A DNA stretch of 64,000 bases from Candidatus Poriferihabitaceae bacterium (GTDB lineage: Bacteria; Pseudomonadota; Gammaproteobacteria; Arenicellales; Poriferihabitantaceae), in assembly GCA_965237995.1 (NCBI GenBank), contig CBDEGO010000005.1, positions 129,341-193,340 on the forward strand. Direction: 5' to 3'. Position numbers and translations under genes: made by a program. The notes under the pieces were generated by a model. It was not told the origin of the DNA. It saw only the letters and a list, made by a program, of their open reading frames with translations, and searched no databases. Below, in pieces: positions 7,416-25,994 of this stretch (position 1 is the first letter of the stretch; each line of letters starts with the position of its first letter).

Positions 7416-8932
7416 GTTTAATTAAGCAAGACGACTTTATCGCCAGTGTCGCTGACGCCTTACAATATATTTCGTATTATCACAGCCAAGACTTCATTGA
7501 GGCCATGCATCAAGCTTGGCAAATTGAGCAATCACCATCGGCTAAAGACGCAATAGCTCAGATTCTAATCAACTCGAAAATGGCCGCGGTGGGTAAACGC
7601 CCGATTTGCCAAGATACGGGTATCGTGGTGGCATTTATTAAAGTCGGGATGGATGTTCGCTTTGACACGGCACTGAGCTTGCAAGAACTGGTTGATGAGG
7701 GTGTCCGCCAGGCTTATAGCAATCCTGACAACCCTTTACGCCACTCCGTTGTGTCACCGCCGTTTGGCAAACGGATTAATACGGGCGATAACGCACCTGC
7801 CGTGGTTTATACAGAATTAGTGCAAGGTGACGGCGTCGACATAAAAATTGCAGCAAAAGGCGGGGGTTCAGAAAACAAAAGTAAATTCACCGTCATTAAT
7901 CCGAGCGATAGCATTGTGGATTGGGTAACAGAAACCGTGCCTAAAATGGGCGCGGGCTGGTGTCCGCCGGGCGTATTAGGTATTGGCATTGGCGGGTCGA
8001 CTGAAAAGGCGATGGTACTCGCTAAGGAATCTTTACTCGATCCTATCGACATCACTGAGCTCATTGCACGAGGCCCTGATAACCCAGAGGAAGAACTGCG
8101 TCTTGACATTATGGACGCTGTTAATCAATTAGGGATTGGGGCGCAAGGGCTAGGCGGTCTCACAACGGTTCTGGACGTCAAAATAAATGCCTACCCGACG
8201 CACGCGGCATCTTTACCCATCGCGATGATTCCAAATTGCGCAGCGACGCGCCATATACATTTTCACTTAGATGGCTCAGGGCCCGCGATTCTCACCCCAC
8301 CGGACTTAAACAATTGGCCTGACGTCAACCAGTCTAGTGACGACGTGGGCACGCCTGTGAATATTAATACGATTACCCAAGCCGAAGTAGAGCGTTGGCA
8401 ACCTGGCCAACCTTTGTTGTTATCTGGGTCAATATTGACTGGCCGCGATGCGGCGCATAAACGCATTGCACAGTTGTTAGATAATGGCGAACCTCTCCCA
8501 GTCGAATTCAAAAACCGTTTTATCTATTACGTAGGCCCAGTCGACCCAATTGAAGGCGAAGCCGTCGGCCCCGCTGGCCCGACGACCGCCACGCGTATGG
8601 ATAAATTCACCGAAATGATGCTGGGCGATCAAGTCGGCGTTATGGGAATGATTGGCAAAGCAGAACGCGGAGATGCGGCAATTGACGTGATCAAAAACCA
8701 TAAATCTGTGTATTTAATCGCTGTCGGTGGTGCAGCCTATTTGGTGTCCAAAGCAATAAAAAATGCCAAGGTGCTCGCATTTGAAGACATGGGTATGGAA
8801 GCAATCTACGAATTTGAAGTAGAAAATATGCCCGTCACTGTCGCGGTCGATTCAACTGGTGATGCCGTACACAAAAGTGGCCCTAAAAACTGGAAAGGAA
8901 AAGCACAACCTATTCGTGTGCAATTACACTAG
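7412..8932 (+). CDS. fumA: Fumarate hydratase, class I (Fe-S dependent, fused alpha/beta type)
   Basis: PICQDTGIVVAF, AAKGGGSENKSKF, NCAATRH and the C-terminal beta-domain GPAGPTTATRMD. 506 aa. 4-nt overlap with the upstream ORF. Confidence 0.85.
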   Translation: MSLIKQDDFIASVADALQYISYYHSQDFIEAMHQAWQIEQSPSAKDAIAQILINSKMAAVGKRPICQDTGIVVAFIKVGMDVRFDTALSLQELVDEGVRQAYSNPDNPLRHSVVSPPFGKRINTGDNAPAVVYTELVQGDGVDIKIAAKGGGSENKSKFTVINPSDSIVDWVTETVPKMGAGWCPPGVLGIGIGGSTEKAMVLAKESLLDPIDITELIARGPDNPEEELRLDIMDAVNQLGIGAQGLGGLTTVLDVKINAYPTHAASLPIAMIPNCAATRHIHFHLDGSGPAILTPPDLNNWPDVNQSSDDVGTPVNINTITQAEVERWQPGQPLLLSGSILTGRDAAHKRIAQLLDNGEPLPVEFKNRFIYYVGPVDPIEGEAVGPAGPTTATRMDKFTEMMLGDQVGVMGMIGKAERGDAAIDVIKNHKSVYLIAVGGAAYLVSKAIKNAKVLAFEDMGMEAIYEFEVENMPVTVAVDSTGDAVHKSGPKNWKGKAQPIRVQLH

Positions 8933-8941
8933 CGCAGCGCA

Positions 8942-9850
8942 TTGAGTGAAGTTAGCTCTTTCGCGCACCCGCGCTATTGGTCAAGCTGGTTTGTCGTAGG
9001 CTTATTACGATTATTGGCCTTATTGCCATTTTGTGTAATCTACGCAATCAGCGCCGTACTCGGCGAGTTGTTATTCGCACTTGTCGCCTCGCGCCGTAAG
9101 ATCACCCTCACCAACCTACGTTTATGCTTCCCTGAAAAATCTGAAGCAGAGCGTAAATCTATTGCGCGCAGACACTTTCGCTTATTGGTGTGCAGCATTC
9201 TAGCGATGGGGTTATTCTGGTGGGGGTCGGCAAAGCGCTTAAAACGCTTGGTTCGACTAGAAGGCTTAGAGCATTTACATAACGCGAAAGAACAAAATGA
9301 AAACGTAATTTTGCTCGCACCGCATTTCGTGGCTTTGGATGCAGGCGGTATCGCCCTGTCTATAGAACACCCAATGACTAGCATGTATCAAACCAATCGC
9401 AACCCCTTGTTTAATCGCCTTTCCATACAGCAACGGGGAAGGTTCAACATTACTATGTTCGACCGTAAAGCACCACTTACAAGCTTAATTCGACAAATTC
9501 GCAGTGGCAAACCATTCTATTATTTACCCGATCAAAATGCAGGGGCAAAACATGGTATTTTCGCGCCATTTTTTGGTATCGAAGCTTCAACCTTCCCCGC
9601 ATTAGGTAAAATCGCAAGCGCGGGCAAAGCGGTGGTTATTCCATGCAGTAATCGTATTTTACCGTGGGGTAAAGGCATCGAAACGAAACTCTACGCGCCG
9701 TTAGAGCATTTCCCGCAAGGTGACCCACTGGCTGATACCACCGCAATGAACAAGGTGGTTGAACAACTGGCAGAAGAGCATATCGACGATTACCTGTGGT
9801 CACACAAACGCTTTAAACGCCGCCCTGAAGGAGAAGAGAGTCTTTACTGA
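8942..9850 (+). CDS. lpxL: Lipid A biosynthesis lauroyl/myristoyl acyltransferase (LpxL/LpxM family)
   Basis: Collinear with E. coli LpxL: HPRYW..W, NLRLCFPEKSEAER, APHF (HX4D-type region), YYLPDQN, WSHKRFKRRPEGE. TTG start. Confidence 0.8.
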   Translation: MSEVSSFAHPRYWSSWFVVGLLRLLALLPFCVIYAISAVLGELLFALVASRRKITLTNLRLCFPEKSEAERKSIARRHFRLLVCSILAMGLFWWGSAKRLKRLVRLEGLEHLHNAKEQNENVILLAPHFVALDAGGIALSIEHPMTSMYQTNRNPLFNRLSIQQRGRFNITMFDRKAPLTSLIRQIRSGKPFYYLPDQNAGAKHGIFAPFFGIEASTFPALGKIASAGKAVVIPCSNRILPWGKGIETKLYAPLEHFPQGDPLADTTAMNKVVEQLAEEHIDDYLWSHKRFKRRPEGEESLY

Positions 9851-10479
9851 TGATGACCTTCGATACTTGGAGCCTTTTTGCTTTAGCGATATTAGCCGCT
9901 TCGATCTCACCGGGACCTAATGTGTTGATTGTCAACACCGTTAGGTACGGCTTTCGCGGTGCATTTTTCACCATCTTAGGCAACTTAACTGCGCTTTTCT
10001 TTGTCGCTTCGTTAGCAGCTTTAGGGGTCGGCACACTGATTAAAACCATGCCTATCGCCTATATCATGATGAAATGGGTTGGCGGTGCTTACTTAATTTG
10101 GATGGGTTATAAATTGATTGCCTCTTCTTTCATGCTAACAAGTTCACAAGCTAAACCCATCGAACATCACCAGACCAATCCACGCTCTAGCGCAGTCTAT
10201 TCTCAAGCGATCGCAGTTTCATTGAGCAACCCTAAATCCATACTATTTTTATCGGCCGTCTTTCCTCAGTTCCTATCCACCGATCAAGCCATTATTCCCC
10301 AATTTGCGGTGATGTTCGCTAGCATCATTTTTGTTGTTGCACTGGTGCATGGAATATACGCGTGGTCCAGTTTATGGCTAAAAGACAAGCCATTGGGGCA
10401 ATCGACCAGAAAGTGGTTAGCTAGACTAACAGGCGGCGCTTTTATTGGTTTAGGTAGTGCCGTTGCCTTTAACGAATAA
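9850..10479 (+). CDS. LysE/RhtB family amino-acid exporter
   Basis: 209 aa with about 6 hydrophobic segments. N-terminal SPGPN motif and mid-protein NPKSILF motif typical of the LysE family. Confidence 0.75.
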   Translation: MMTFDTWSLFALAILAASISPGPNVLIVNTVRYGFRGAFFTILGNLTALFFVASLAALGVGTLIKTMPIAYIMMKWVGGAYLIWMGYKLIASSFMLTSSQAKPIEHHQTNPRSSAVYSQAIAVSLSNPKSILFLSAVFPQFLSTDQAIIPQFAVMFASIIFVVALVHGIYAWSSLWLKDKPLGQSTRKWLARLTGGAFIGLGSAVAFNE

Positions 10480-10492
10480 TCGATACACTTCT

Positions 10493-11119
10493 ATGATTCC
10501 ATTCGATGTACTCACCAGTTTTTTCGCAGTGTCAGTCGTGCTTGCTTTGTCTCCGGGGCCAGATAATATTTTTGTCCTAACGCAGTCACTACTACACGGG
10601 CGCTTTGCTGGCTTGATAGTTACCGTGGGTTTGGCCAGCGGCATTTTAATTCATACCGCCGCAGTTAGCTTAGGCGTGGCGGCCTTGCTCGTCGCCTCAC
10701 CTGCGTTGTTTAATGCTTTAAAGTTTATCGGTGCAGCCTACTTATTGTATTTAGCATGGGGGGCATGGAACGCGACTGCGATTGATAAGACGACTGGGGA
10801 CGCTCCAAAATTAAGTACGATAAAGCTATACTTTAGAGGCTTTATCATGAATGTCACTAATCCAAAAGTGACGATATTCTTCCTCGCGTTTTTACCGCAA
10901 TTCACCGATGCCGCACGTGGCTCTGTGCCCATGCAAATCGTGTTATTGGGCGCTACTTTTATAGTGGCCACCTTATTGATTTTTGGTGCAATTGCATTAT
11001 TAGCAGGGTTGCTCGGTCCCAAATTACAAAACTCTGACCGATTTCAAAAAGTTCTAAATCGCAGCGCAGCTGTCATTTTTACTGGGCTTGCATTAAAGCT
11101 TCTAACCGCGCAACTATAG
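10493..11119 (+). CDS. LysE/RhtB family amino-acid exporter (second, tandem paralogue)
   Basis: SPGPDNIFV and NPKVTIFFLAFLPQF motifs. Start moved to the ATG at 10493 (MIPFDVLTSFF) to avoid overlap with the upstream gene. Confidence 0.75.
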   Translation: MIPFDVLTSFFAVSVVLALSPGPDNIFVLTQSLLHGRFAGLIVTVGLASGILIHTAAVSLGVAALLVASPALFNALKFIGAAYLLYLAWGAWNATAIDKTTGDAPKLSTIKLYFRGFIMNVTNPKVTIFFLAFLPQFTDAARGSVPMQIVLLGATFIVATLLIFGAIALLAGLLGPKLQNSDRFQKVLNRSAAVIFTGLALKLLTAQL

Positions 11120-11122
11120 GCC

Positions 11123-11150
11123 AAAAAAAACCCGCTAAGAAGCGGGCTTT
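11123..11150 (-). terminator. Rho-independent terminator of etfBA (also usable on the + strand after the LysE gene)
   Basis: A8-CCCGCT-AAGA-AGCGGG-CTTT. On the minus strand the hairpin is followed by U8. Confidence 0.7.
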
Positions 11151-11170
11151 ATCATTTCAGCCGGCTTGCT

Positions 11171-12100
11171 TTATAACGCAGCTTCCAACGCTGGGATTAC
11201 GTCAAATAAATCTGCAACTAAACCATAACTAGCAACCTGAAAAATTGGTGCATCTTCGTCGGTATTTACCGCAACGATTACCTTACTTTCTTTCATGCCC
11301 GCTAGGTGCTGAATCGCTCCAGAGATACCAAACGCGATATACACATCCGGTGCAACAACCTTACCTGTTTGGCCAACTTGCAGCTCGTTTGGCGCATACC
11401 CGGCGTCAACCGCTGCGCGGGATGCACCAATCGCAGCTCCTAGTTTTTCGGCTAATGGATCAAGAATTTTGAAGTTCTCTTCGCTGCCCATCCCACGGCC
11501 GCCAGAAACGACAATCTTCGCGCTCACTAAATCTGGGCGATCAGATTGACCAATTTCTTCAGAAACAAATTGTGTACCGCCAAACGCAGTTTCAGCAGCA
11601 ACACTTTCGACACTGGCAGAACCCGCCCCTTCTAGCGCTTCAAAAGAAGTGCTGCGCACAGTAATAAGTTTTGTAGCATCGCTACTTTGCACTGTGGCAA
11701 CGGCATTACCCGCGTAGATTGGACGCTCAAAGGTATCAGCGCTTACTATTGCAGAGATATCTGAAATCTGCTGGACATCAAGTTTGGCAGCTACACGCGG
11801 CATCCAGTTTTTGCCCGATGCAGTGGCAACCGCTAAAACATGGCTATAATCATCTGCTAGGCGACAAACCAAGGCAGACATATTTTCCGCAATGGCATTG
11901 GCTAAGCTAGCATCATCTGCATGCAGTACCTTACTTACGCCTGCCGCTGCGGCCACTTCTTGCGCTACCGCGGCGCAATCACTACCCGCAACTAATACGT
12001 GGACATCTGCATCACCTAATTGGCTGGCTGCGCTAATAGCGCTCAAAGTCATGCCATTTAATTCGCTGTTATTATGTTCAGCAACAACTAGTACGCTCAT
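11171..12100 (-). CDS. etfA: Electron transfer flavoprotein subunit alpha
   Basis: 309 aa, C-terminal FAD-binding block [39 protein letters not shown]. Confidence 0.92.
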
Positions 12101-13439: not shown

Positions 13440-15074
13440 ATGAGCAATCTAAATCAACACCTTGAACAACTCGGCATTACCCATAGTACCGAGTTGGTTT
13501 ACAACCCCAGTTACGAACAGCTGTTTGAAGAAGAAATGGACGCCACCTTAGCCGGTTACGAAAAAGGCAAACTAACTAACATGGGCGCCGTGTCAGTTGA
13601 CACTGGCATCTTTACTGGTCGTTCGCCTAAAGATAAATACATCGTGCGTGACGATACTTCACGTGACAACGTATGGTGGTCTGATCAAGGCAAAAATGAC
13701 AACCAACCCATGTCTCAAGAAACTTGGGAAGACTTAAAAGGCAAAGTCACTCATGGTCTATCAAACAAGCGTTTGTTCGTCGTTGACGCGTATTGCGGCG
13801 CAAACCCAGCCACTCAGTTAAAAGTACGCTTCGTCATGGAAGTGGCCTGGCAAGCGCATTTTGTCAAGAACATGTTTATTCGCCCAACGGATGAACAGCT
13901 TACGGATTTCACCCCCGACTTCACCATTTTGAATGGTTCTAAAACAGTAAATCAAGATTGGCAACAGCAAGGGCTAAATTCTGAAAATTTTGTTGCTTTT
14001 AACTTAAGCGAAGGTATGCAGCTAATTGGTGGCACTTGGTACGGCGGCGAAATGAAAAAGGGCATGTTCTCGATGATGAACTACCTACTTCCACTGAAGG
14101 GCATTGCCTCAATGCATTGTTCGGCTAACAAAGGCGCAGATGGCGATACCGCCATCTTCTTCGGATTGTCTGGTACAGGAAAAACAACTTTATCCACAGA
14201 CTCTACCCGCCAACTAGTCGGTGACGACGAGCATGGTTGGGATGATGATGGCATCTTTAATTTTGAAGGGGGTTGTTACGCAAAGACCGTCAATTTAAGT
14301 GAAGAAGCCGAACCAGATATTTTCGGTGCAATTCGCCGCGATGCGCTACTTGAAAATGTGGCGGTTGCCGCAGATGGCACCGTCGATTTCAACGACACGT
14401 CGGCCACAGAAAACACTCGCGTTTCCTATCCGATATATCATATCAATAATATCGTCAAACCGATTTCCCGTGCAGGGCACGCCAGCAAGGTTATTTTCTT
14501 GTCTGCCGACGCATTTGGCGTACTACCACCCGTTGCTAAGCTAACGCCAGAGCAAATGCAGTATCACTTCCTGTCTGGCTTCACCGCCAAACTAGCTGGC
14601 ACAGAACGCGGTGTCACAGAGCCAACGCCTACTTTTTCTGCTTGCTTTGGGGCTGCTTTTTTGAGCTTACACCCAACCCGTTATGCGGAGACATTGGTTA
14701 AGCGCGTTGAAAACGCAGGCGCTCAAGCCTATCTAGTCAACACCGGCTGGAATGGCACAGGCAAACGTATTTCAATTCAAAACACCCGTGAGATTATTAA
14801 CGCGATATTGGACGGCTCTATTGAAGAATCAGAAACTATTCAATTGCCGTACTTTGATTTTGCAATCCCCACCGCATTAAGCGGTGTTGAAACTAATATT
14901 TTAGACCCACGCAACACCTATGCTGATGCAGCACAGTGGGACACTAAGGCAGTTGACTTAGCCAAGTTATTTATCGCAAATTTTGAGAAATATACTGATA
15001 CAGATGCTGGAAAAATGCTGGTAGCGGCAGGGCCTCAAGAAGTGGACCCCATGAATAGGACAGTTTGGTGTTAA
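13440..15074 (+). CDS. pckA: Phosphoenolpyruvate carboxykinase (ATP); the last 12 codons are supplied by an IS fragment
   Basis: [19 protein letters not shown] and [13 protein letters not shown] motifs. Ends ...[19 protein letters not shown], then [11 protein letters not shown] read from IS-derived DNA starting at 15039. Confidence 0.93.
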
Positions 15075-15112
15075 AGCTAAGGAGTTATTTTCTGTTTTAT
15101 AATTGTTCAAAA
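15039..15112 (+). mobile_element. Solo left-end fragment (74 bp) of the IS3-family element that is complete at 20769-22033
   Basis: GAAGTGGACCCCATGAATAGGACAG...TTGTTCAAAA aligns to 20769-20842 with 3 mismatches. Identity stops at 15113. Confidence 0.85.
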
Positions 15113-15352
15113 GGGTAGAAGTTTATGCATAGACTCTTCCAATATATGCAACTTAATCAGCTTAGACTCTAATTCATTTTTCAGGGTATTAGACAGTGAT
15201 TTGCGCTTTCGGTTATCTAGATTCCTCCTTTCTAGAGAAAGCGCCTTTAAGATATAATCTTGCTCAGATGTTATGCTTTCACTAGAAGACTCGGCTATTG
15301 CGATTATATTTTGTATTTCCCTTATTTCATCGTCAAGGCAACCCTGCTTCAT
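15107..15352 (-). CDS. Hypothetical small coiled-coil protein, possibly a 3'-truncated remnant
   Basis: 81-aa ORF in AT-rich island DNA. Its stop codon (15107-15109) lies inside the IS fragment, so the C-terminus was created by the junction. Confidence 0.3.
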   Translation of the reverse strand: MKQGCLDDEIREIQNIIAIAESSSESITSEQDYILKALSLERRNLDNRKRKSLSNTLKNELESKLIKLHILEESMHKLLPF

Positions 15353-15515: not shown

Positions 15516-16241
15516 TTAAGCAGCAATATCTGCAATTAGCTTATTTTCTTCTACTATAGTTTGGTCATAGAGTTCTTGAAAATACTCTCGGAAATATTTA
15601 GATATACTTTTAAGAATCTTGGTAAATTCTTCAAGGTGGTCATTTGATCTAAGTAAGGAATAGCTAATTTCAAATATCATTTCTAGATGATCTTCATTTA
15701 CATCAAATTGTACATGAGCCTTAGAGCCTTTTACGTGTTTAGAAGAAAACTTTTCCTCTGCTTTTTCTACTACGCTAGGTGAATATCGATCAGAATTCCA
15801 CTCCACAAATAGAGAATATCCAACTGCCCCGAGCGGTTCTCCTCCCGATATTACATTCGCTAAATATTCACCCATGTTTTTTGTTGCCTCGAAGGGAGTA
15901 ATCGAATTAACATATTCAGGGCTAAGGTTGTGTTTTTTGATATCAGTCAAGAACATTTTATCGTGATTCATTTCCTGTACGGTGTATAATCCCCATTTTC
16001 GTGCCATTGGGTAATTAATTTTGGCAATTTGTGAAAGTGCTAATGCATCTGTTGATGTAGTCATTCTAATGCGCTTAACTGTTTCAACTCTATGACGCAA
16101 ATAATATTGCTCATTGAGTTCATGTTGTTTATTTGTCAAATGATCTGCATAATCTACTATATTGAAATAGATTTGCAATTCAGATTCAAATAATCTTTCG
16201 ATGTTTTCTTTAAAGTCTTGATATTTCATTAATGGTTTCAT
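15516..16241 (-). CDS. Hypothetical all-helical protein, tentatively heme-oxygenase-like (HDO / Haem_oxygenas_2-like) fold
   Basis: His/carboxylate-rich helices (VDYADH, FVEWNSD, HVQFDVNEDH with H-x3-D spacing). Start chosen at the ATG at 16241, 9 nt after GGAAGGA; the track ORF begins at TTG 16259. The family call is an inference, not a confirmed match. Confidence 0.35.
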   Translation of the reverse strand: MKPLMKYQDFKENIERLFESELQIYFNIVDYADHLTNKQHELNEQYYLRHRVETVKRIRMTTSTDALALSQIAKINYPMARKWGLYTVQEMNHDKMFLTDIKKHNLSPEYVNSITPFEATKNMGEYLANVISGGEPLGAVGYSLFVEWNSDRYSPSVVEKAEEKFSSKHVKGSKAHVQFDVNEDHLEMIFEISYSLLRSNDHLEEFTKILKSISKYFREYFQELYDQTIVEENKLIADIAA

Positions 16242-16281
16242 ATTCATACTTCCTTCCAATAGGGTTAGTGTGATTTGGGTA

Positions 16282-16325
16282 GCCGGGCTAGGGCCAAACT
16301 TTACAGCGAATGGCCCTAGCTCGGC
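16282..16325. repeat. GC-rich 15-bp inverted repeat (REP-like or RNA-stabilising hairpin) in an AT-rich spacer
   Basis: GCCGGGCTAGGGCCA-N14-TGGCCCTAGCTCGGC with one mismatch. No U-tract on the minus strand. Confidence 0.5.
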
Positions 16326-16409
16326 CTATTCAACAATTATTTAATGGTGTCCATCTTTCGCCTCCAAATGGTTAAAGTTAATGAAATTCGCAGTGTAGAT
16401 AGATATACA

Positions 16410-17291
16410 CTACGACCGAAATCGCTTTGATATACACATGTATATACCAGCGAATATAAATACTGAGGCTATTGTGAGTTCGATTGTTAGTACTTCATCA
16501 GCGAATACAATGCCTAAGGCCAGAGCAACTATAGGTATCAAATAGTTGTTCATAGTGAAATATGTTGCTCCTTTAGAAGCAATTAGACCGTACATAATTA
16601 CAAATGGAATAGCAGTGCTGATCACTCCTAACGCGATAGTCGCGTATAGAGAATTCAAGCTGAACTGCGGAAAATTAGGCTGTTCATAGATAACAGCTGG
16701 TACTAATGTAATTGCAGCAATGAATGTGACTGCGGTTGCAATCATCTCCGGCTTAACGTTCTTAACTTTTTTAGCTAGTATTGTTGAAATGGCATACGCA
16801 ATAGCGGCAAGAACAGCCGATAGTATAGCAATCATGTTTTCAACGTTATTAAAAGATATTTCAGGATAATAAATAATTCCAACACCAATCAATCCCAATA
16901 CGACACCAAATACTTTAGCTTTATCTATGGCTTCGTCTTTCGCTAAAAAGAAAGCTAGGATAAAGACAAACATTGGTACCGTTCCGATTAATAGACCAGT
17001 AAGGCCGCTGTCAATATGTTTTTCGGCAAAGGATACAAGTGAAAAAGGTATAACGTTTCCTACTATGCCTATAATGATGATAACCCTCCAAGACTTGGAA
17101 TCGCCACTAAAGCTAATTCTCTTAACCAATAAATAGCCGCCTAAGACTACTGTTGCAATAGCAACCCTAAGAAACACTAAAGTAAATATTGGTATGGTAT
17201 CAATACCATACTTTATAAATAAGAATGATGCACCCCGACACAAAGCAATCAAAAAAATCAACAATATGGGCGTTAGAAATGGACTCAGCAA
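16410..17291 (-). CDS. DMT superfamily (EamA-like) transporter
   Basis: 293 aa with about 10 hydrophobic segments in two EamA-like halves. Overlaps the upstream N-hydroxylase gene by 7 nt. Confidence 0.75.
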   Translation of the reverse strand: MLSPFLTPILLIFLIALCRGASFLFIKYGIDTIPIFTLVFLRVAIATVVLGGYLLVKRISFSGDSKSWRVIIIIGIVGNVIPFSLVSFAEKHIDSGLTGLLIGTVPMFVFILAFFLAKDEAIDKAKVFGVVLGLIGVGIIYYPEISFNNVENMIAILSAVLAAIAYAISTILAKKVKNVKPEMIATAVTFIAAITLVPAVIYEQPNFPQFSLNSLYATIALGVISTAIPFVIMYGLIASKGATYFTMNNYLIPIVALALGIVFADEVLTIELTIASVFIFAGIYMCISKRFRS

Positions 17292-18577
17292 CTGACTATC
17301 TCCTCTAGATTATCCCACACCACAAATTCTTCACGATCTGGCACGGTAAATATCTCCCTCTCACATATACTATTTAAGATCAATGAATTTCTCCAAGGTG
17401 ACATTCCCAAATTTGGTTCTGCTATACCGTTTTTGCTCTTTGTCATTCCTTGTAAATATATTTTATTTCCATTATGTTTATCTGATATCAAAGAAAAGTC
17501 ATCATTTACATCAAAGCCATCCATATTAATTCCGCTATTAGAGGCAATATTCGACATAATATCCGGGAGTACAGCTTTTTGGCCCAGAGATAATACAACG
17601 TAATCTGATTCAATATTCTCCCGCTTTCCATTTGCTAGATGGTGCAATTTCAATTTCCAACGCGAGTCTTCACATGCCAACGCTTTTAGTTCTCTATCTG
17701 GTGCGATAATGTACTTACAATGGTGTTGTTCAACATAAATACGCCTATAAAGGTCTTTATATATTTCTCCTAACGTCTCTAATGAAATTCCATCACTAGC
17801 TAATTTTTGCGAATTATTTTTACTTTTTCTCGTTGTTTCCTTCAGCGAGCTAAAATACCTCGCATAAGAAGGGGTATACAGTTCGTTAACGAATGGCGAG
17901 TCATCAAAAGGCAGTAAGTTTTCTCTTCTTGTTAGCCAAATAATCTTACTTATTTCTTGATCGTCTGATCGAGATAGTAAGTCAATAAATATTTCGGCAC
18001 TAGTCTGACCACCTCCTACTAAGGCGACGACACCAGAGATATTCTCAGGGGAGGAATGTAAATATTTCCTAGCCATTATAATGCGGTCATCCTTAACACA
18101 TTCCGCTATAAACTCTTGCCCCGCTTCATATTGTCCTGTTCCAAGTACTATGTGCTCTGAATAGTATTTTCCACTGGTTGTATTTACGCAAAATACATCT
18201 TCCATAAAATCAACGGTAATAACATTACACGAATAACAAACGTTCGATAAAGAATTGGATACCCAGTTCATATATCTAGCGAATTCCTTTCTCGGAATAA
18301 ATTCATAATCCGCATTTAAGAATTTATATAATCGCCCATTTTTATGGAGATAATTCACGAAACTATATTTGCTTTGCGGGTTCGCTAATGTAACAAGGTC
18401 TTTAATATGAGAGGTTTGTAGTGTTGCATTCTCAAAAAGGAGACCATTATGCCAATACGAGCCAATATCTTTTTTTTCAAAGAATAAGGAGTCTATATCG
18501 CCCAACTCTTCAGATAAAGCAGCTAAGCTCAAATTGAATGGCCCTAACCCTACTCCAATAACTTTATATGTCTTCAA
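17285..18577 (-). CDS. Flavin-dependent N-hydroxylating monooxygenase, IucD/PvdA (lysine N6-hydroxylase / ornithine N5-oxygenase) family
   Basis: GVGLGPFNLSLAAL...SYWHNGLLF...LQTSHIKDLVTLANPQSKYSFVNYLHKNGRLYKF is collinear with IucD. NADPH motif VGGGQTSAEIF. Confidence 0.8.
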   Translation of the reverse strand: MKTYKVIGVGLGPFNLSLAALSEELGDIDSLFFEKKDIGSYWHNGLLFENATLQTSHIKDLVTLANPQSKYSFVNYLHKNGRLYKFLNADYEFIPRKEFARYMNWVSNSLSNVCYSCNVITVDFMEDVFCVNTTSGKYYSEHIVLGTGQYEAGQEFIAECVKDDRIIMARKYLHSSPENISGVVALVGGGQTSAEIFIDLLSRSDDQEISKIIWLTRRENLLPFDDSPFVNELYTPSYARYFSSLKETTRKSKNNSQKLASDGISLETLGEIYKDLYRRIYVEQHHCKYIIAPDRELKALACEDSRWKLKLHHLANGKRENIESDYVVLSLGQKAVLPDIMSNIASNSGINMDGFDVNDDFSLISDKHNGNKIYLQGMTKSKNGIAEPNLGMSPWRNSLILNSICEREIFTVPDREEFVVWDNLEEIVSC

Positions 18578-18642
18578 CGCATACTCCTTCTATTCCAAAT
18601 ATTATTGTTACTCAAATATAGAAAATATGAAGTCAATATATC

Positions 18643-19611
18643 CTAGTTATATTCGATTCCATATCTATTTGACAAATTCAGATTTGTTTTTCTGTAATAA
18701 TCTTTGACCTTCTTTGAAATGGGACTAGGTAAAATATACCTAGACTTTTCTTGCTTTACCAGAAGGCCATTATAGATCCTGTCTACAACCTTCTTTAAGG
18801 TATCATTCTTAATTACATGAAAATTACTATGGTATTTACTCAATTGGGTATATCTCTCAGGGTCTTCTTTGAATATTTTTCTACCTAATCTTTGAAAGAG
18901 AGGTATCCGAACTTCGTATGAGCACATATATGGTTTGAACTCATATGTGTCATATATATCAGAACTTATTTCTAGAAAAGTACATATTTTTCTCATAACA
19001 GCTTTTGGCTGACTTGCCATTTCTTCTAAAGTCCCAAAGTAAATGTTTTCTCTCCCTATAGCCTCTATCCAGCGTGTAATGTGGTCTTCGTAGCATCCCA
19101 TTTCTAGCTCTAGATTAAATATTTCTTTGAAGAAGTCCTTTTTAATCTTTCTAAGATATAAATCCTTCTTCTCGTCACCATCAAATAGTGCGGTTACAAA
19201 TTCTTCATATGTTGATTCTGGATATTCTTGATAGACATTCTTAAAGTATCTAAAGCTTGATAGCAATCTATCGGCGGGGTTGCGAATTGTAAATATGACC
19301 TTACTACCACTTTCTTTCGCGTACTCTAAGGCACGATTTTGAGAATAGTAGCAAGGCGTAGCATCTAGCAAATACTTTTCTCCTTGACGGTGACGATATA
19401 AACTTGCAATTCCACCTTGGGACCCATCTGCTGTTTTTTCTAACGCCTTACTCATTGAGTCGAACGGCGAACCCTGATCTACATAATGGTAAAGCTCCTT
19501 AGCAAACGGCACACAAATTTCGCCATGTTCAGATAAGTACTTTGATAGTGATGTAGTCCCGCATTTGTAGAAACCCACTATTAGTAGGTTTGGTGAAGTT
19601 AATCCAATCAT
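18643..19611 (-). CDS. PAPS-dependent sulfotransferase
   Basis: 5'-PSB loop FYKCGTTSL and 3'-PB motif IRNPADRLLSSF. Confidence 0.75.
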   Translation of the reverse strand: MIGLTSPNLLIVGFYKCGTTSLSKYLSEHGEICVPFAKELYHYVDQGSPFDSMSKALEKTADGSQGGIASLYRHRQGEKYLLDATPCYYSQNRALEYAKESGSKVIFTIRNPADRLLSSFRYFKNVYQEYPESTYEEFVTALFDGDEKKDLYLRKIKKDFFKEIFNLELEMGCYEDHITRWIEAIGRENIYFGTLEEMASQPKAVMRKICTFLEISSDIYDTYEFKPYMCSYEVRIPLFQRLGRKIFKEDPERYTQLSKYHSNFHVIKNDTLKKVVDRIYNGLLVKQEKSRYILPSPISKKVKDYYRKTNLNLSNRYGIEYN

Positions 19612-19612
19612 A

Positions 19613-19706
19613 CTATTTAACCTTATTTATTTAACCCTATTTATTTAACCCTATTTATTTAACCCTATTTATTTAACCCTATTTATTTAACCCTATTTAT
19701 TTAACC
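19613..19706. repeat. 14-bp tandem repeat, about 6.6 copies (CCCTATTTATTTAA), immediately 5' of the sulfotransferase start codon
   Basis: Six full head-to-tail units at 19621-19704, plus a partial unit at 19613-19620. The unit nearest the start forms the putative RBS (AAGG on the minus strand). Confidence 0.95.
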
Positions 19707-19710
19707 TTCA

Positions 19711-19740
19711 TAAAAGTTATAAAAGTTATATAAGTTATAT
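19711..19740. repeat. 9-bp tandem repeat x3 (TAAAAGTTA)
   Basis: TAAAAGTTA TAAAAGTTA TATAAGTTA TAT, directly after the 14-bp array. Confidence 0.85.
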
Positions 19741-19870: not shown

Positions 19871-20137
19871 ATGAAGAAATCACGATATACAGATAGCCAG
19901 ATCATGGCGATCTTGAAACAAAATGAGTCAGGGGTTAGCGTAACTGATCTATGCAGAGAGCACAGTATGAGCCAAGCTGCGTTTTACCAATGGCGCAGCA
20001 AGTACGGCGGCATGGATGCCTCTTTGATGAAAGCAATTAAGGAACTTAAGGCTGAAAATGCTCGACTAAAACGCATGTATGCCGAAGAAAAGCTTAAAGT
20101 TGAAATAGCCCGTGAGGCCATTGAAAAAAAATGGTGA
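19871..20137 (+). CDS. IS3-family transposase OrfA (HTH)
   Basis: MKKSRYTDSQIMAILKQNESGVSVTDLCREHSMSQAAFYQWRSKYGGMD, a typical IS3/IS407 OrfA with a leucine-zipper tail. Confidence 0.85.
   Translation: MKKSRYTDSQIMAILKQNESGVSVTDLCREHSMSQAAFYQWRSKYGGMDASLMKAIKELKAENARLKRMYAEEKLKVEIAREAIEKKW
20125..20131 (+). other. Candidate -1 programmed frameshift heptamer A AAA AAA (orfA to orfB)
   Basis: The heptamer is in the X XXY YYZ register of orfA (codons AAA at 20126 and 20129). The -1 frame continues as KKMVTPSRR into orfB. Confidence 0.6.
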
Positions 20138-20784
20138 CGCCGTCTCGACGCAAAGAGATGGCGACAAGAGTAACCGAGCAATACCCAGTTTCAATTCGAG
20201 CTGCCTGTATTGTGTTTTCTATTAGCGAGACCTGTTATCGCTATCAGGCTAAATTATCTACTGAGAATGCGCTAATCGGTGATTGGTTGCTGAGATTAAC
20301 GACCACCTACAAACGCTGGGGCTTTGGTTTGTGCTATTTGTACCTGCGTAACGTCAAAGGCTATGGCTGGAACCATAAGCGGGTATATCGTATTTACCGA
20401 GAGCTTGAACTAAACCTAAGAATAAAACCTAGACGCCGTATTAAACGAGATAAGCCAGATGCACTAAGTGTACCTCTACAGGTTAATGATGTTTGGTCGA
20501 TGGGCTTTATGAGTGATTCGCTTAACGATGGACGAACGCTACGCACCTTCAATGTGATTGATGATTACAATCGAGAATGTTTAACCATCGATGCTGATTT
20601 ATCGTTGCCTAGCTTAAGAGTGATTCGAGCACTTGAACAGGTAATGGAGTGGCGTGGTAAACCCAATGCTATTCGTTGTGATAATGGCCCTGAATACGTA
20701 AGCAACCAAATAGTTGAATGGGCTAATAAGCATCAAATAACGTTGCTTTACATTCAACCGGGCAAACTGAAGTGGACCCCATGA
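20131..20784 (+). pseudogene. IS3-family transposase OrfB (rve integrase core), truncated
   Basis: ...IRCDNGPEYVSNQIVEWANKHQITLLYIQPGK, then LKWTP* read from the inserted IS. The region that normally carries the catalytic Glu is missing and is not found after 22033. Confidence 0.8.
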
Positions 20785-20855
20785 ATAGGACAGTTTAGTG
20801 GTAAAACTAAGGAGTTATTTTCTGTTTTATAATTGTTCAAAACGAGGAACAGAAA

Positions 20856-21137
20856 ATGAGTAGAAAACGTAGAAATCATTCACCACAATTCAAAGCCAAA
20901 GTAGCGCTTGCTGCAATCAAAGGAGATGAAACATTAAGCGCTCTTGCTAGTCGTCATGATATCGCTGCTAATCTTATTGTTAAATGGAAGAAGCAATTGC
21001 TTGACAGCTCAACTGATGTCTTTGCTTCAGGCACTGGTTTAGCGCCCGATAGAGAATCAGAGATTAAATCATTGCAAGCTAAGATTGGTGAGATCACTAT
21101 GGAAAATGATTTTTTGTCCAAAGCGCTCGGTCGTTAA
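20856..21137 (+). CDS. IS3-family transposase OrfA
   Basis: MSRKRRNHSPQFKAKVALAAIKGDETLSALASRHDIAANLIVKWKKQLL, HTH plus coiled coil. Confidence 0.85.
   Translation: MSRKRRNHSPQFKAKVALAAIKGDETLSALASRHDIAANLIVKWKKQLLDSSTDVFASGTGLAPDRESEIKSLQAKIGEITMENDFLSKALGR
21110..21116 (+). other. Candidate -1 programmed frameshift heptamer T TTT TTG
   Basis: In X XXY YYZ register with orfA. The -1 frame reads FFVQSARSLNRLQRKAMINK without a stop, directly into orfB. Confidence 0.55.
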
Positions 21138-21157
21138 ACAGACTGCAGCGCAAAGCC

Positions 21158-21982
21158 ATGATTAATAAAACCAATGAATTATCGTTAGTTCGTCAGTGTA
21201 AGCTGTTGGAAATTCATCGATCTAGCGTTTACTACAAGCCTACACCAGCTACTAATGACGACTTGGAGCTAATGCATCTGATAGATCGAATTCACCTCAA
21301 TCGGTCTTTCTTAGGCAGTAGGCGTATTCGCGATGTATTGCAAGATGTTGGCCACCGAGTTGACCGTAAGCATGTGCAGCGTTCAATGCGTAAGATGGGC
21401 ATTAAAGCTATCTACCCTAAGCCGAATACCAGTAAGAGAAAGGCTGGCCATAAGGTTTATCCTTATCTGCTAGGCGGATTGAATATTAAACGCCCTAATC
21501 AAGTGTGGGCTACGGATATCACCTACATACCAATGCCTAATGGCTTTGCGTATCTCACGGTGGTGATGGATTGGTATTCTCGTAAAGTATTGTCATGGCG
21601 CCTTAGCAACAGCATGGACAGTTCATTCTGTGTTGATGCCTTAGAAGAGGCGCTGCATTACTATGGTAAACCTGAAATCTTTAACAGTGACCAGGGCGTA
21701 CAATTCACTAGCGAAGCCTTTACAAACGTGTTTAAAACAAACAATATTCGCATCAGTATGGACGGCAAGGGTGCTTGGCGTGACAATGTGTTTGTTGAGC
21801 GTTTATGGCGCAGTATTAAATATGAGGAAGTTTATCTGCAATCTTACCAGACGATGAGAGAGGCAAAAGAAGGCATTGGTGCTTGGATACAATATTACAA
21901 TCAAGAGCGAAAACATCAAACCTTGGGCATGGTGCCCGACATGATGTATGATCCATATCATGGCCTGAAACTAGCCGCATAA
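21158..21982 (+). CDS. IS3-family transposase OrfB (DDE/rve), probably made as an OrfAB fusion
   Basis: DDE context WATDITYIP ... FNSDQGVQFTS ... VERLWRSIKYEEVY. Confidence 0.88.
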   Translation: MINKTNELSLVRQCKLLEIHRSSVYYKPTPATNDDLELMHLIDRIHLNRSFLGSRRIRDVLQDVGHRVDRKHVQRSMRKMGIKAIYPKPNTSKRKAGHKVYPYLLGGLNIKRPNQVWATDITYIPMPNGFAYLTVVMDWYSRKVLSWRLSNSMDSSFCVDALEEALHYYGKPEIFNSDQGVQFTSEAFTNVFKTNNIRISMDGKGAWRDNVFVERLWRSIKYEEVYLQSYQTMREAKEGIGAWIQYYNQERKHQTLGMVPDMMYDPYHGLKLAA

Positions 21983-22071
21983 TCAGGTGGAAATAACTCC
22001 TAAGCAACCTGTCCTAAAAATGGGGTCCACTTCTTCACCTTAGCTAACGATAGAATGTTAAGCTCTTCGAC

Positions 22072-24545: not shown

Positions 24546-25994
24546 CTACCAAATTTTCTCTCTTGTAGTGAATTCGGTTACAACCGAAGAATAAGTTACG
24601 TCAACACTAGCAATTTGCCAATAATTGTCTGAACGATCTGCATTTCTATCTCTACACACACCCGCATAGTGAATAGGTGTAGCTAGATTAATAAATGATT
24701 TACCCTTTTCCGTCAAAAACACTCTATCGCTGTTTGAATATACCAGCTTATTTTCAATCAGAATTCTAATCGCCTCATTAAATTCTGAAGGTTGAATAGT
24801 AAAAGTTCGAGTTCGGCCACTTACCAAATACCTTGTATGTTGGTTTCTTCTCTCTGTTGCCGTGTGAAGTAAACCTTTCAATCTAGTTGGATTACTCGCG
24901 AAATTGATTAAATTCAACAAATCAAAAACCAATGGTGTTTCCAAGCTTGTAACTCGAAACTTGGATTTATGTAAATCTGGGATTTTTTTCGTAACATACA
25001 AAGCAGCAGTTACACCAGTTCTTATATATGTCTGAAGTGCCCTTTCTGATTGACCTCCTGTAACTGAAAACCCTTTTGGTTTTCTAAGCTCAAGTAGTTT
25101 TGCTAAAACATCCATACCTGCTCGAATACTTCCATCGCAAACGGGTAAAATTAATTCGTCGCATAGTTCTTTAGAAAAAGGATTTATTTTTTTAAAGTCC
25201 GACGATCCAGTTGTATTTAGTATTCGTTTTTCGATAACCTTATGTAATGAGACTAAAGGAAGCTCCTCATGATTTGTCACAAAAGAGTCGATTCGAGTTA
25301 ACTGCTTACTCGTAAACTTCTCAAGGGTTTCAGGTCTAACAATAAGCCACTTCTTTATTCCTCCAGGCTCAATCGTGCTGTTGATAAACTCAAAAATATC
25401 CATGAGTCTATTCGCATCATCTATAGTATCGATATTGTCTAAAATAAATACTAAAGTTCTTGAAAATTTTCCTTTGTTTGCAGGATTAAATACGTAGTTT
25501 TTAAGCTCGAGAACCTGAGCTGCAAGCCCTTGCTCGCTATCCACAATTTCACAACACAGTCGGTCAAAAACATTACCTTGCTCTGATTCTTCGTACAGTT
25601 CAAACAAAGATTCTTTAATTTTTTCAAGAATTTGGTACCTCCAGTTTTCACCTTTAGCATTATTAGCGTGACATATGTAAAACTTGTACTGCGCATTTAG
25701 TTGCTTATCTTTGGTTGCATGATCCAGCAAGGTAAAGAGAAACGTTGTTTTTCCAATTCCTGGATTTCCCTGCACGAGCATCATAGTACCTGCAGCAGAG
25801 GTATGTTGTAATTTGAGCTTCAAATTGCTAGCAAACTCTTTGAGTTCATCTGAGGAGTAATACCGAAGGTCAAATTCTTTTGTTCGCCCCTCAGTTAACA
25901 GCGAATGACAATTCCCTAAATCAGGGTAACTTATCCACCCAAGTAGCTTAAACCATTCTGTAACACCCACCTCTTCGTCGAACAAACCACTCAT
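24546..25994 (-). CDS. P-loop AAA+ ATPase, ORC/Cdc6-like, with C-terminal winged-helix domain
   Basis: Walker A GNPGIGKTT (aa 76-84). Walker B LVFILDNID (aa 181-189; Asn sits where the catalytic Glu is usual). Lid/sensor-2-like DGSIRAGMDVLAKLL (aa 287-301). wHTH-like FNEAIRILIENKLVYSNSDRVFLTEKGKSF (aa 405-434). AGGA RBS 9 nt upstream. Confidence 0.7.
   Translation of the reverse strand: MSGLFDEEVGVTEWFKLLGWISYPDLGNCHSLLTEGRTKEFDLRYYSSDELKEFASNLKLKLQHTSAAGTMMLVQGNPGIGKTTFLFTLLDHATKDKQLNAQYKFYICHANNAKGENWRYQILEKIKESLFELYEESEQGNVFDRLCCEIVDSEQGLAAQVLELKNYVFNPANKGKFSRTLVFILDNIDTIDDANRLMDIFEFINSTIEPGGIKKWLIVRPETLEKFTSKQLTRIDSFVTNHEELPLVSLHKVIEKRILNTTGSSDFKKINPFSKELCDELILPVCDGSIRAGMDVLAKLLELRKPKGFSVTGGQSERALQTYIRTGVTAALYVTKKIPDLHKSKFRVTSLETPLVFDLLNLINFASNPTRLKGLLHTATERRNQHTRYLVSGRTRTFTIQPSEFNEAIRILIENKLVYSNSDRVFLTEKGKSFINLATPIHYAGVCRDRNADRSDNYWQIASVDVTYSSVVTEFTTREKIW

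Follow-up and report, generated by a model that had tools for sequence, protein, structure and literature searches.

A mobile four-gene cassette with an MboA-like diiron oxidase and a conserved five-codon gene: a possible peptide-tailoring mini-pathway in an Arenicellales bacterium

What might a sulfotransferase and an N-hydroxylase of the lysine/ornithine N-oxygenase family make together, when they stand in one gene string with an exporter and no siderophore synthetase? The question is raised by a small cassette in Candidatus Poriferihabitaceae bacterium (Gammaproteobacteria, Arenicellales), located in a 64,000-nucleotide stretch of contig CBDEGO010000005.1 (assembly GCA_965237995.1, positions 129,341 to 193,340), which is hereafter referred to as the window and whose own numbering is used throughout. 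Four intact genes lie there on the minus strand in the order sulfotransferase (ST), SidA/IucD-type N-hydroxylase (NMO), EamA exporter and heme-oxygenase-like diiron oxidase (HDO), on a low-GC segment flanked by insertion sequence (IS) ends. The original prediction, made from the DNA letters alone, had placed the four open reading frames (ORFs) correctly and had seen in them a small-molecule cluster with O-sulfonation of an N-hydroxy amine as its suggested chemistry, a free amine as the likely substrate and a mere spacer before the fourth gene. The present analysis moves the emphasis to that spacer. Because it holds a conserved five-codon gene, a tiny, modified and exported peptide is the probable product, and not a siderophore or a free-amine product. 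From sequence comparison, the chances are about even that the cassette is a mini-pathway resembling those of ribosomally synthesised peptides that are modified after translation (RiPPs), where the C-terminal Lys of a ribosomal pentapeptide is tailored.

The spacer runs for 168 nt from the EamA stop codon (16410) to the HDO ATG at 16241; this length, and the 7-nt overlap of the EamA start with the NMO stop (17285-17291), are as first reported. It is the best-conserved part of the cassette, with a column identity of 81% against about 66-71% nucleotide identity for the genes, when the window is compared with the two closest related loci (L001 and L002). It is no mere spacer, since it contains a strong Shine-Dalgarno (SD) sequence, a conserved ORF of five codons (hereafter the mini-ORF) and two hairpins (Table 1). 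The peptide MDIIK or MDTIK is encoded upstream of HDO in seven lineages, namely the window, L001, L002, L004, L005, another gammaproteobacterium (L006) and Sorangium (L029). The mini-ORF lies 78-149 nt upstream of the HDO gene and is preceded by an SD sequence at 5-7 nt in all seven. The differences between the copies are nearly all synonymous (GAT/GAC, ATT/ATC, AAA/AAG, TAA/TAG), together with one Ile/Thr change, and the chance expectation for matches to the five-codon ORF is 0.008 in the 2.5 Mb of fetched loci searched.

The secondary structure of the spacer is conserved as well. Its minimum free energy is -58.6 kcal/mol (z=-4.07; none of 200 shuffles was as good), and 9 of the 41 pairs predicted in the consensus fold are changed on both sides between the window and L001/L002, that is, by compensatory changes. 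A hairpin follows the mini-ORF in six of the seven lineages, with z values of -2.4 to -6.0. Hairpin 1 was also scored as terminator-like, with a weak T tail; an intrinsic terminator was considered for hairpin 2 and ruled out, there being no U-tract after its stem. A scan of 14.5-22.5 kb against Rfam gave no known RNA family in the spacer or the upstream region. The mini-ORF travels with HDO: spacer and HDO are replaced together in one related locus (L030) and both lie within a single deletion in another (L031). As a separate observation, a second exact MDIIK-coding 18-mer, ATGGACATTATCAAGTGA, occurs in L001 at about position 10336 on the minus strand, antisense within the NMO gene. Neither L002 nor the window shares this 18-mer, its SD sequence is poorly spaced, and 0.008 such matches are expected by chance.

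The same C-terminus is found on longer ORFs in more distant lineages. In nine further HDO loci (Breoghania, Novosphingobium, Massilia, Paraburkholderia, Chitinophagaceae, Fibrobacteria, Bdellovibrionales, Thermoanaerobaculia and Chloroflexi), an ORF that ends just upstream of HDO finishes in [M/L/F]-D-h-h-K. Seven of these ORFs are 44-68 aa in size, those of Chloroflexi (L015) and Paraburkholderia (L013) being longer or of uncertain start. Their last residues before the stop codon read ARLPNGMDLIK, ARLPNGMDIVK, QLPVGLDLVK, KLPFGFDIVK, AQLPFGMDLVK, NLPHGMDISK, ALDVIK, GLDVIK and RLPGGMDVIK. The aligned long forms share a leader-like N-terminal part, their sole invariant residues being Asp at -4 and the Lys at the C-terminus; none of these ORFs matched a Pfam or NCBIfam family. 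A mini-ORF or a longer ORF ending in D-h-h-K and a stop codon was thus found directly upstream of HDO in 16 of about 24 lineages. An opine (octopine/nopaline) dehydrogenase gene is a conserved neighbour of HDO in four of the long-form loci (L014, Breoghania, 8501-9535; L017, 10865-11935; L020, Massilia, 10339-11622; L024, 4379-5539). The long forms suggest the leader-plus-core layout of a precursor or scaffold peptide with its core at the C-terminus, which the window lineage would have reduced to the core alone, equipped with a ribosome-binding site of its own. A candidate precursor gene with a conserved core adjoining the gene of a modifying enzyme, the arrangement expected of RiPP loci, is what was found.

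The enzyme encoded next to this gene gives a clue to the substrate. The original prediction had described the fourth gene product as helical and heme-oxygenase-like, which is borne out by its AlphaFold2 model (pLDDT 94.3, all-helical, heme-oxygenase-like fold), for which the top Foldseek matches are 3dde, UndA, CADD, TenA, PqqC and BesC at a TM of about 0.7. It had also treated the gene as a loosely attached extra, a view that does not hold for an MboA-like oxidase preceded by a conserved ORF. The Pfam match of HDO (PF14518, E=2.9e-5) lies under Pfam's own cut-off, and the assignment is secured by other evidence: HDO and MboA (PDB 9ypi) align without a gap over 189 residues, 30.7% of which are identical (E=2.4e-22), and a profile of the HDO family, for which 75 homologues were collected, matches MboA at E=6.8e-37. 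MboA is the mangotoxin acetylenase, a heme-oxygenase-like diiron oxidase that desaturates Cβ-Cγ of the C-terminal Arg in Leu-Ala-Arg; the C-terminal carboxylate of the peptide ligates Fe1, D90 is an exchangeable ligand and Y82 the proposed base (PMC13185094). All the 3-His/3-carboxylate metal ligands of MboA are kept: E96, H99, D100, E153, H182, D186 and H191 of HDO align to E86, H89, D90, E143, H172, D176 and H181 of MboA (an offset of +10), Y92 aligns to Y82, and all eight residues are invariant in 22 homologues. Among the guanidinium-binding residues of MboA, D61 is kept (D71), and N57 and D139 are replaced by T67 and S149, as would be expected for a different basic side chain. By sequence, therefore, the fourth gene is assigned as an MboA-like diiron oxidase. 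The exporter, correctly named in the original prediction, scores 92 bits against TIGR00950 (carboxylate/amino acid/amine transporter), and the mangotoxin operon likewise ends with an EamA-family exporter, MboF (PMC3355146). The likely substrate is the C-terminal Lys of a ribosomal peptide, because an MboA-like oxidase is combined with a conserved mini-ORF; the free lysine, ornithine, cadaverine or putrescine first proposed are disfavoured on the same grounds.

A plausible course of events can be outlined. The five-codon gene would be translated to (f)Met-Asp-Thr-Ile-Lys. The hairpin that follows the gene probably serves, like that of mccA in microcin C, to stabilise or attenuate the transcript. 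HDO would bind the C-terminal carboxylate of the peptide at Fe1 and oxidise the Lys side chain by desaturation or hydroxylation; NMO and ST might tailor the same residue further, by N-hydroxylation followed by O- or N-sulfonation, and EamA would export the product, probably an antimetabolite or a signal. We infer from sequence comparison the mini-ORF peptide as the substrate, the residue modified, the order and type of the reactions and the role of the product. The partners that vary between lineages are mostly amine-directed, comprising NMO, the opine dehydrogenase (4 loci), a GNAT (L030) and a carbamoyltransferase (8 loci). Taken with an exporter like MboF and a layout like that of mccA, they would by analogy point to tailoring of a C-terminal Lys. 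A more specific proposal is put forward only tentatively, at rather less than even chance: the cassette would represent an undescribed RiPP-like class, defined by an MboA-like oxidase and a D-h-h-K precursor, here a five-codon gene, in which Lys is N6-hydroxylated and sulfonated to an N-O-SO3 or sulfamate warhead, a biological counterpart of hydroxylamine-O-sulfonic acid chemistry.

Several points weigh against the tailoring of a ribosomal pentapeptide. Translation of the mini-ORF is itself a prediction from its sequence. About 7 of the 24 HDO lineages have no upstream D-h-h-K ORF by the criteria used, and neither a leader peptide nor a RiPP recognition element or protease was found in the window cassette, leaders being confined to the distant relatives. 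As happens in mangotoxin synthesis, the ATP-grasp ligases encoded in L004/L005 could make a non-ribosomal substrate, in which case the mini-ORF would be regulatory. ST may have a substrate of its own, since ST and EamA persist in L030 without HDO and mini-ORF. The known relatives of NMO use free L-lysine (PMC11705231), and at 31% identity the reaction type of HDO is not predictable.

The related loci indicate which parts of the cassette are constant. Several of them come from metagenome-assembled genomes (MAGs) or low-coverage assemblies. The order ST-NMO-EamA-HDO was found in two other assemblies, an Arenicellales MAG (L001 = L003) and L002, whose cassettes are 91-92% identical in nucleotide sequence, have unrelated flanks and form low-GC inserts (0.39-0.40 against 0.51-0.57 in the surroundings). 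The dN/dS values between these two copies are 0.15 for ST, 0.19 for NMO, 0.11 for EamA and 0.11 for HDO; therefore, the cassette genes are under purifying selection. The recurrence of the four-gene set is far beyond chance, and the description of a compact, conserved, horizontally acquired small-molecule cluster stands, given a gene order that recurs with unrelated flanks and a low GC content.

NMO is the part that does not persist. In L030 and L031, which are syntenic with L001/L002, it is cleanly absent between ST and EamA; L030 also has HDO replaced by a GNAT and an AbiEii gene, and in L031, EamA has been joined to the C-terminus of HDO by a deletion. The L001 copy of NMO has a 52-aa in-frame deletion directly after its GGGQTSAE NADPH motif, and the L002 copy is frameshifted, which could be a sequencing error since the assembly coverage is only 3.97x. 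EamA, HDO and ST occur without NMO in two deeper relatives, L004 from a MAG of Mariprofundaceae and L005 (= L025) from one of Rhodobacteraceae. They lie there with the mini-ORF in a larger cluster (L004, 1-11761; L025, 2634-15717) that also encodes a 715-aa second HDO, for which no solved relative was found in the L025 case, a carbamoyltransferase, two LysE exporters and a TauD-type oxygenase. Further genes are those of two ATP-grasp ligases in L004, directly upstream of EamA, mini-ORF and HDO, and those of a class-III aminotransferase and a DHDPS-like protein in L025; by analogy, this orphan cluster resembles a peptide pathway of the mangotoxin kind that includes sulfation and carbamoylation. 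Because NMO is absent or damaged in the relatives, the constant unit is ST with EamA, usually joined by mini-ORF and HDO, and the ST-NMO pair is not the conserved core. NMO is a lineage-specific accessory, intact only in the window.

The affiliation of NMO itself leads away from siderophores. Its membership in the lysine/ornithine N-oxygenase family was rightly recognised; a FAD motif of the GxGxxN type (GVGLGPFN) and the NADPH motif GGGQTSAE are present. The best solved structures, at 183-204 bits, are 6xbb, 7us3 (a putrescine N-hydroxylase) and 5o8p (an enzyme of the desferrioxamine pathway, deposited as L-lysine 6-monooxygenase); 6xbb is deposited only as 'Monooxigenase', and we take it to be FbsI. 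The exact NMO protein of the window is absent from the records searched, and its closer relatives, at 36-39% identity and about 290-317 bits, are uncharacterised. Genomic context was sampled for four of them (P0004, P0007, P0025 and P0056, from a metagenome, Vibrio cholerae, Sorangium and Legionella hackeliae), which are mutually 37-42% identical apart from one pair at 65%. Genes for a methionyl-tRNA synthetase (MetRS)-like protein and a cupin adjoin NMO in all four, some being accompanied by a DAO-type oxidase and a nonribosomal peptide synthetase (NRPS). This set is that of the bacterial hydrazine synthetases, in which an amino acid is joined to N6-hydroxy-lysine through an O-aminoacyl-hydroxylamine (PMC11705231; PMC12376268; bioRxiv 10.1101/2025.08.22.671884). 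Since its sampled nearest relatives lie in hydrazine clusters, the window NMO is of the lysine-N6-hydroxylase, N-N-pathway type and not of the siderophore type. This bears out the original view of an enzyme outside the usual siderophore setting, and the window cassette lacks the cupin, MetRS-like and DAO genes as well. A compact hydrazine-type set in V. cholerae (L113/L114, 7001-14598) comprises an NMO, an ATP-grasp protein, a cupin-MetRS fusion, a saccharopine-dehydrogenase-like protein, an MFS transporter and a GNAT, and adjoins RecT, SSB and YqaJ recombination genes and a transposase, which suggests a mobile N-N-bond cluster in that species.

In hydrazine chemistry the N-OH group is O-activated as a leaving group (bioRxiv 10.1101/2025.08.22.671884), so the idea of an activated N-O leaving group, raised in the original prediction, is chemically reasonable. 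An N-O-sulfonate would be attractive on such analogy and is not required by the conserved core. These relatives also speak for the main rival reading, a free amine or amino acid as the substrate. NMO would convert it into a hydroxylamine and ST would O-sulfonate this, so that either the sulfate ester is the product or its N-O-SO3 group is a leaving group in the formation of N-N or N-C bonds, with HDO as an oxidase, EamA as the exporter and the mini-ORF as a regulatory leader. In the hydrazine pathways it is free N6-hydroxy-lysine that is O-activated, relatives of EamA export amino acids, most characterised HDOs act on free amino acids (PMC13108848), and neither leader, recognition element nor protease is present in the window cassette. 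We nevertheless consider this reading unlikely. ST, EamA and HDO persist in close and deeper relatives that dispense with NMO or lack it, and a regulatory leader leaves unexplained why the same pentapeptide forms the C-terminus of ORFs of 44-68 aa or longer in other phyla. The ribosome-binding site of HDO is not sequestered by hairpin 2, which also has no U-tract.

Less probable still is a role of the small peptide as a scaffold or carrier of the pearlin or LysW kind, with the substrate attached at the C-terminus, or the Lys modified, and then cleaved, so that EamA would export a modified amino acid. The size and conserved tail of the 44-68 aa forms would suit such a function, as would the position of the two ATP-grasp genes in L004 and the amino-acid-sized molecules that EamA proteins typically move; however, the window cassette contains no ATP-grasp, PEARL or peptidase gene, and we know of no precedent for a scaffold of five residues. 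A detoxification or resistance island, in which ST, NMO and HDO inactivate a toxic amine or peptide, EamA pumps it out and the leader ORF senses it by ribosome stalling, is quite improbable. The link of HDO to the precursor spans many phyla and has biosynthetic neighbours (carbamoyltransferase, ATP-grasp, opine dehydrogenase, P450), and no resistance family was matched, PADLOC and resistance libraries not having been searched; on its side stand a mobile, IS-associated island with an efflux protein and modifying enzymes, the GNAT in place of HDO in L030, and the resemblance of a short conserved upstream ORF (uORF) with a hairpin to inducible resistance leaders. Finally, a supply of N-hydroxy-lysine or an N-hydroxy-diamine to a hydroxamate siderophore synthetase encoded elsewhere, for which the PF13434 match and the structures 7us3 and 5o8p may be cited, is scarcely credible, since NMO lies in a low-GC cassette of foreign origin, where its translation is coupled to that of EamA, and is lost in sister cassettes, its closer relatives being of the hydrazine type, and no siderophore gene among the ORFs scanned.

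That scan covered the cassette and the 20 window ORFs of at least 381 aa outside it, with PckA (13440-15074) inspected by eye only. No NRPS, IucA/IucC or TonB-receptor domain and no siderophore-type acyltransferase was found among them, nor any gene for an NRPS-independent siderophore (NIS) synthetase, which agrees with the absence of NRPS and NIS partners reported at the outset. The siderophore reading was rejected on these absent partner genes together with the hydrazine-type nearest relatives. The scanned ORFs are mostly housekeeping genes (fumarase, lipid A acyltransferase, IlvC, HslU, cytochrome b, HemX/Y, FabB-like), with one NACHT/STAND NTPase and one ORF without a family; PckA and EtfAB were identified from their translations.

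ST is of the type that uses 3'-phosphoadenosine 5'-phosphosulfate (PAPS), as the original prediction had it. It shows what is required of a PAPS sulfotransferase (Sulfotransfer_1), namely a 5'-phosphosulfate-binding (5'-PSB) loop, K16-C-G-T-T-S21, a 3'-phosphate-binding (3'-PB) motif, R110-N-P-A-D-R-L-L-S118, and a catalytic base; the loop, R110..S118 and K38-E39 are invariant in a tiny family of 16 matches among 5.8 billion clusters. Its predicted model (pLDDT 74, moderate confidence) resembles heparan-sulfate 3-OST and NDST domains, and the predicted fold would thus resemble both O- and N-sulfotransferases of the heparan-sulfate type. More distant relatives (40-49% identity, soil metagenomes) have no NMO, EamA or HDO adjoining. 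Their contexts comprise LuxRI with DegT and an AEC transporter, CysN/APS kinase (L033) with alkylsulfatase, MFS and GNAT, and an ABC transporter with NRPS; they appear to indicate only PAPS use and export. In one of them (L042, 3922-8682), an ST relative of 43% identity lies in the string LuxR, LuxI, DegT-aminotransferase, ST, AEC transporter, which may make a quorum-sensing-controlled sulfated amine product.

The coordinates of all these elements and of their surroundings are collected in Table 1.

Table 1. Elements of the cassette and its borders, in window positions
Feature	Position	Strand	Details
74-nt copy of the left end of an IS3-family element	15039-15112	+	identity to 20769-20842, 96%; forms an inverted repeat with 22005-22035
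ORF of 81 aa and low GC content, downstream of HDO	15107-15352	-	cassette membership doubtful
HDO, MboA-like	15516-16247	-	start ATG 16247 or 16241; longest ORF from TTG 16259, 247 aa
Hairpin 2	16282-16326	-	GC-rich (0.64); 16-17 bp stem; 10 nt past the mini-ORF stop
Mini-ORF, M-D-T-I-K	16354-16337	-	5 codons, ATG GAC ACC ATT AAA TAA
SD sequence, GGAGG	16365-16361	-	upstream of the mini-ORF
Hairpin 1	16388-16416	-	at the EamA stop codon; stem kept with different sequence in L001 and L002
EamA/drug-metabolite transporter (DMT) exporter	16410-17291	-	293 aa; PF00892, E=1e-35
NMO, flavin N-hydroxylase (SidA/IucD/PvdA family)	17285-18577	-	intact; 430 aa; PF13434, E=1e-88
ST, PAPS-type sulfotransferase	18643-19611	-	322 aa; PF00685, E=9e-20
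14-nt tandem repeat	19614-19706		TATTTAACCCTATT, 6.6 copies, 98% identical; directly upstream of the ST start
Truncated IS3-family element	19871-20784	+	orfA 19871-20137, orfB' 20131-20784; interrupted by the intact element
Intact IS3-family element	20769-22035	+	orfA 20856-21137, orfB 21158-21982; terminal inverted repeats 20769-20796 and 22006-22033

The cassette region is a compositional island, with a GC content of 0.356 against 0.45 in the rest of the window and a dip to 0.34-0.36 across 15-20 kb. Owing to the match of the 74-nt copy to the left end of the intact IS3-family element, the cassette lies between two direct copies of an IS end. The 74-nt copy marks one boundary of the island. 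It also contains the final 11 codons of pckA with their stop codon, so that the C-terminus of PckA is IS-derived. The segment is an IS-borne, horizontally transferred cassette. The 81-aa ORF gave no family match and has no homologue in any related locus. The GC content is low again at about 24-27 kb, where an ORF of 482 aa on the minus strand (24546-25994) matches the NACHT/STAND-type P-loop NTPases PF05729 and PF24883 and may be a separate defence-type islet adjoining IS elements.

The 14-nt tandem repeat upstream of ST is likely the putative promoter or regulatory region of the operon, and could serve as a promoter-spacing element, a phase-variable element or an array of protein-binding sites; a 9-nt repeat (3.3 copies) lies next to it at 19710-19739. 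In L030, the gene of an ArsR/HTH_20-type regulator of 263 aa (9213-10004) overlaps the ST start, remnants of it are seen in L001 at about 8230-9016, and L002 and L031 have an ORF of 200-212 aa without a family at its position; the regulator has been lost in the window. The 14-nt repeat stands where this helix-turn-helix (HTH) regulator gene precedes ST in L030.

Should the mini-ORF encode the substrate, it would rank with the shortest functional protein-coding genes known, its five codons comparing with seven in mccA, and HDO would be the first heme-oxygenase-like diiron oxidase acting on a ribosomal peptide in the literature searched; it would also link an HDO, a lysine-type N-hydroxylase and a PAPS sulfotransferase, which have not yet been characterised together. 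The cassette also shows how the key component of such clusters escapes gene callers and readers alike. With 39 representatives at E<=1e-30 among 1.84 billion, the HDO family is rare; as it spans many phyla, a single experiment would suffice to annotate this orphan family as a whole. Should the mini-ORF prove to be regulatory, its conserved combination with the hairpin is still a new cis-element associated with the HDO family.

Among known systems, no match was found in the literature for clusters of a sulfotransferase with an N-hydroxylase or HDO, or of HDO with a RiPP precursor. Hydroxamate siderophore clusters (IucD/PvdA/DfoA) share with the cassette an N-hydroxylase of the same Pfam family and its FAD and NADPH motifs; unlike them, the window has no synthetase, acyltransferase or receptor among the scanned ORFs, and the partners and nearest relatives of NMO are different. 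The hydrazine pathways (Spb38-40 / Tri26-28 type) contribute the N-hydroxylases nearest to NMO outside the cassette and the concept of hydroxylamine O-activation, whereas the window has a sulfotransferase where the O-aminoacylating enzyme would stand and lacks cupin, MetRS-like and DAO genes; in a 2024 review of N-N bond enzymes, 'sulfotransferase' and 'sulfat-' do not occur (PMC11705231).

The layout resembles that of microcin C (PMC4231749; PMC6495379), in which a tiny precursor gene with a strong SD sequence and a hairpin is likewise followed by the gene of a modifying enzyme, the C-terminal residue is modified, the exporter is dedicated and the locus is mobile. The cassette differs from it in having five codons instead of seven, HDO, NMO and ST as the enzymes, an EamA and not an MFS exporter, and no adenylyltransferase of the MccB type, no ThiF/MccB domain having been found in the cassette. 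With the mangotoxin mbo operon of Pseudomonas syringae (PMC13185094; PMC3355146) it shares an HDO homologue with the same ligands, a paired EamA exporter and the substrate logic of a short peptide with a basic C-terminal residue, and the ATP-grasp ligases of that operon recur in the related L004. In the window itself, ATP-grasp ligases, an MboB-type flavin/Fe2S2 reductase (both absent among the cassette ORFs) and MboE are missing, ST and NMO are added, and the peptide is apparently ribosomal (5 codons) and ends in Lys and not Arg, two of the three guanidinium-binding residues being changed. All the four enzyme families were known already, as was, from mangotoxin, the occurrence of an HDO in a small peptide cluster; what appears from the sequences to be new is the apparently ribosomal five-codon precursor, its family-wide link to HDO and the tailoring set of ST and NMO.

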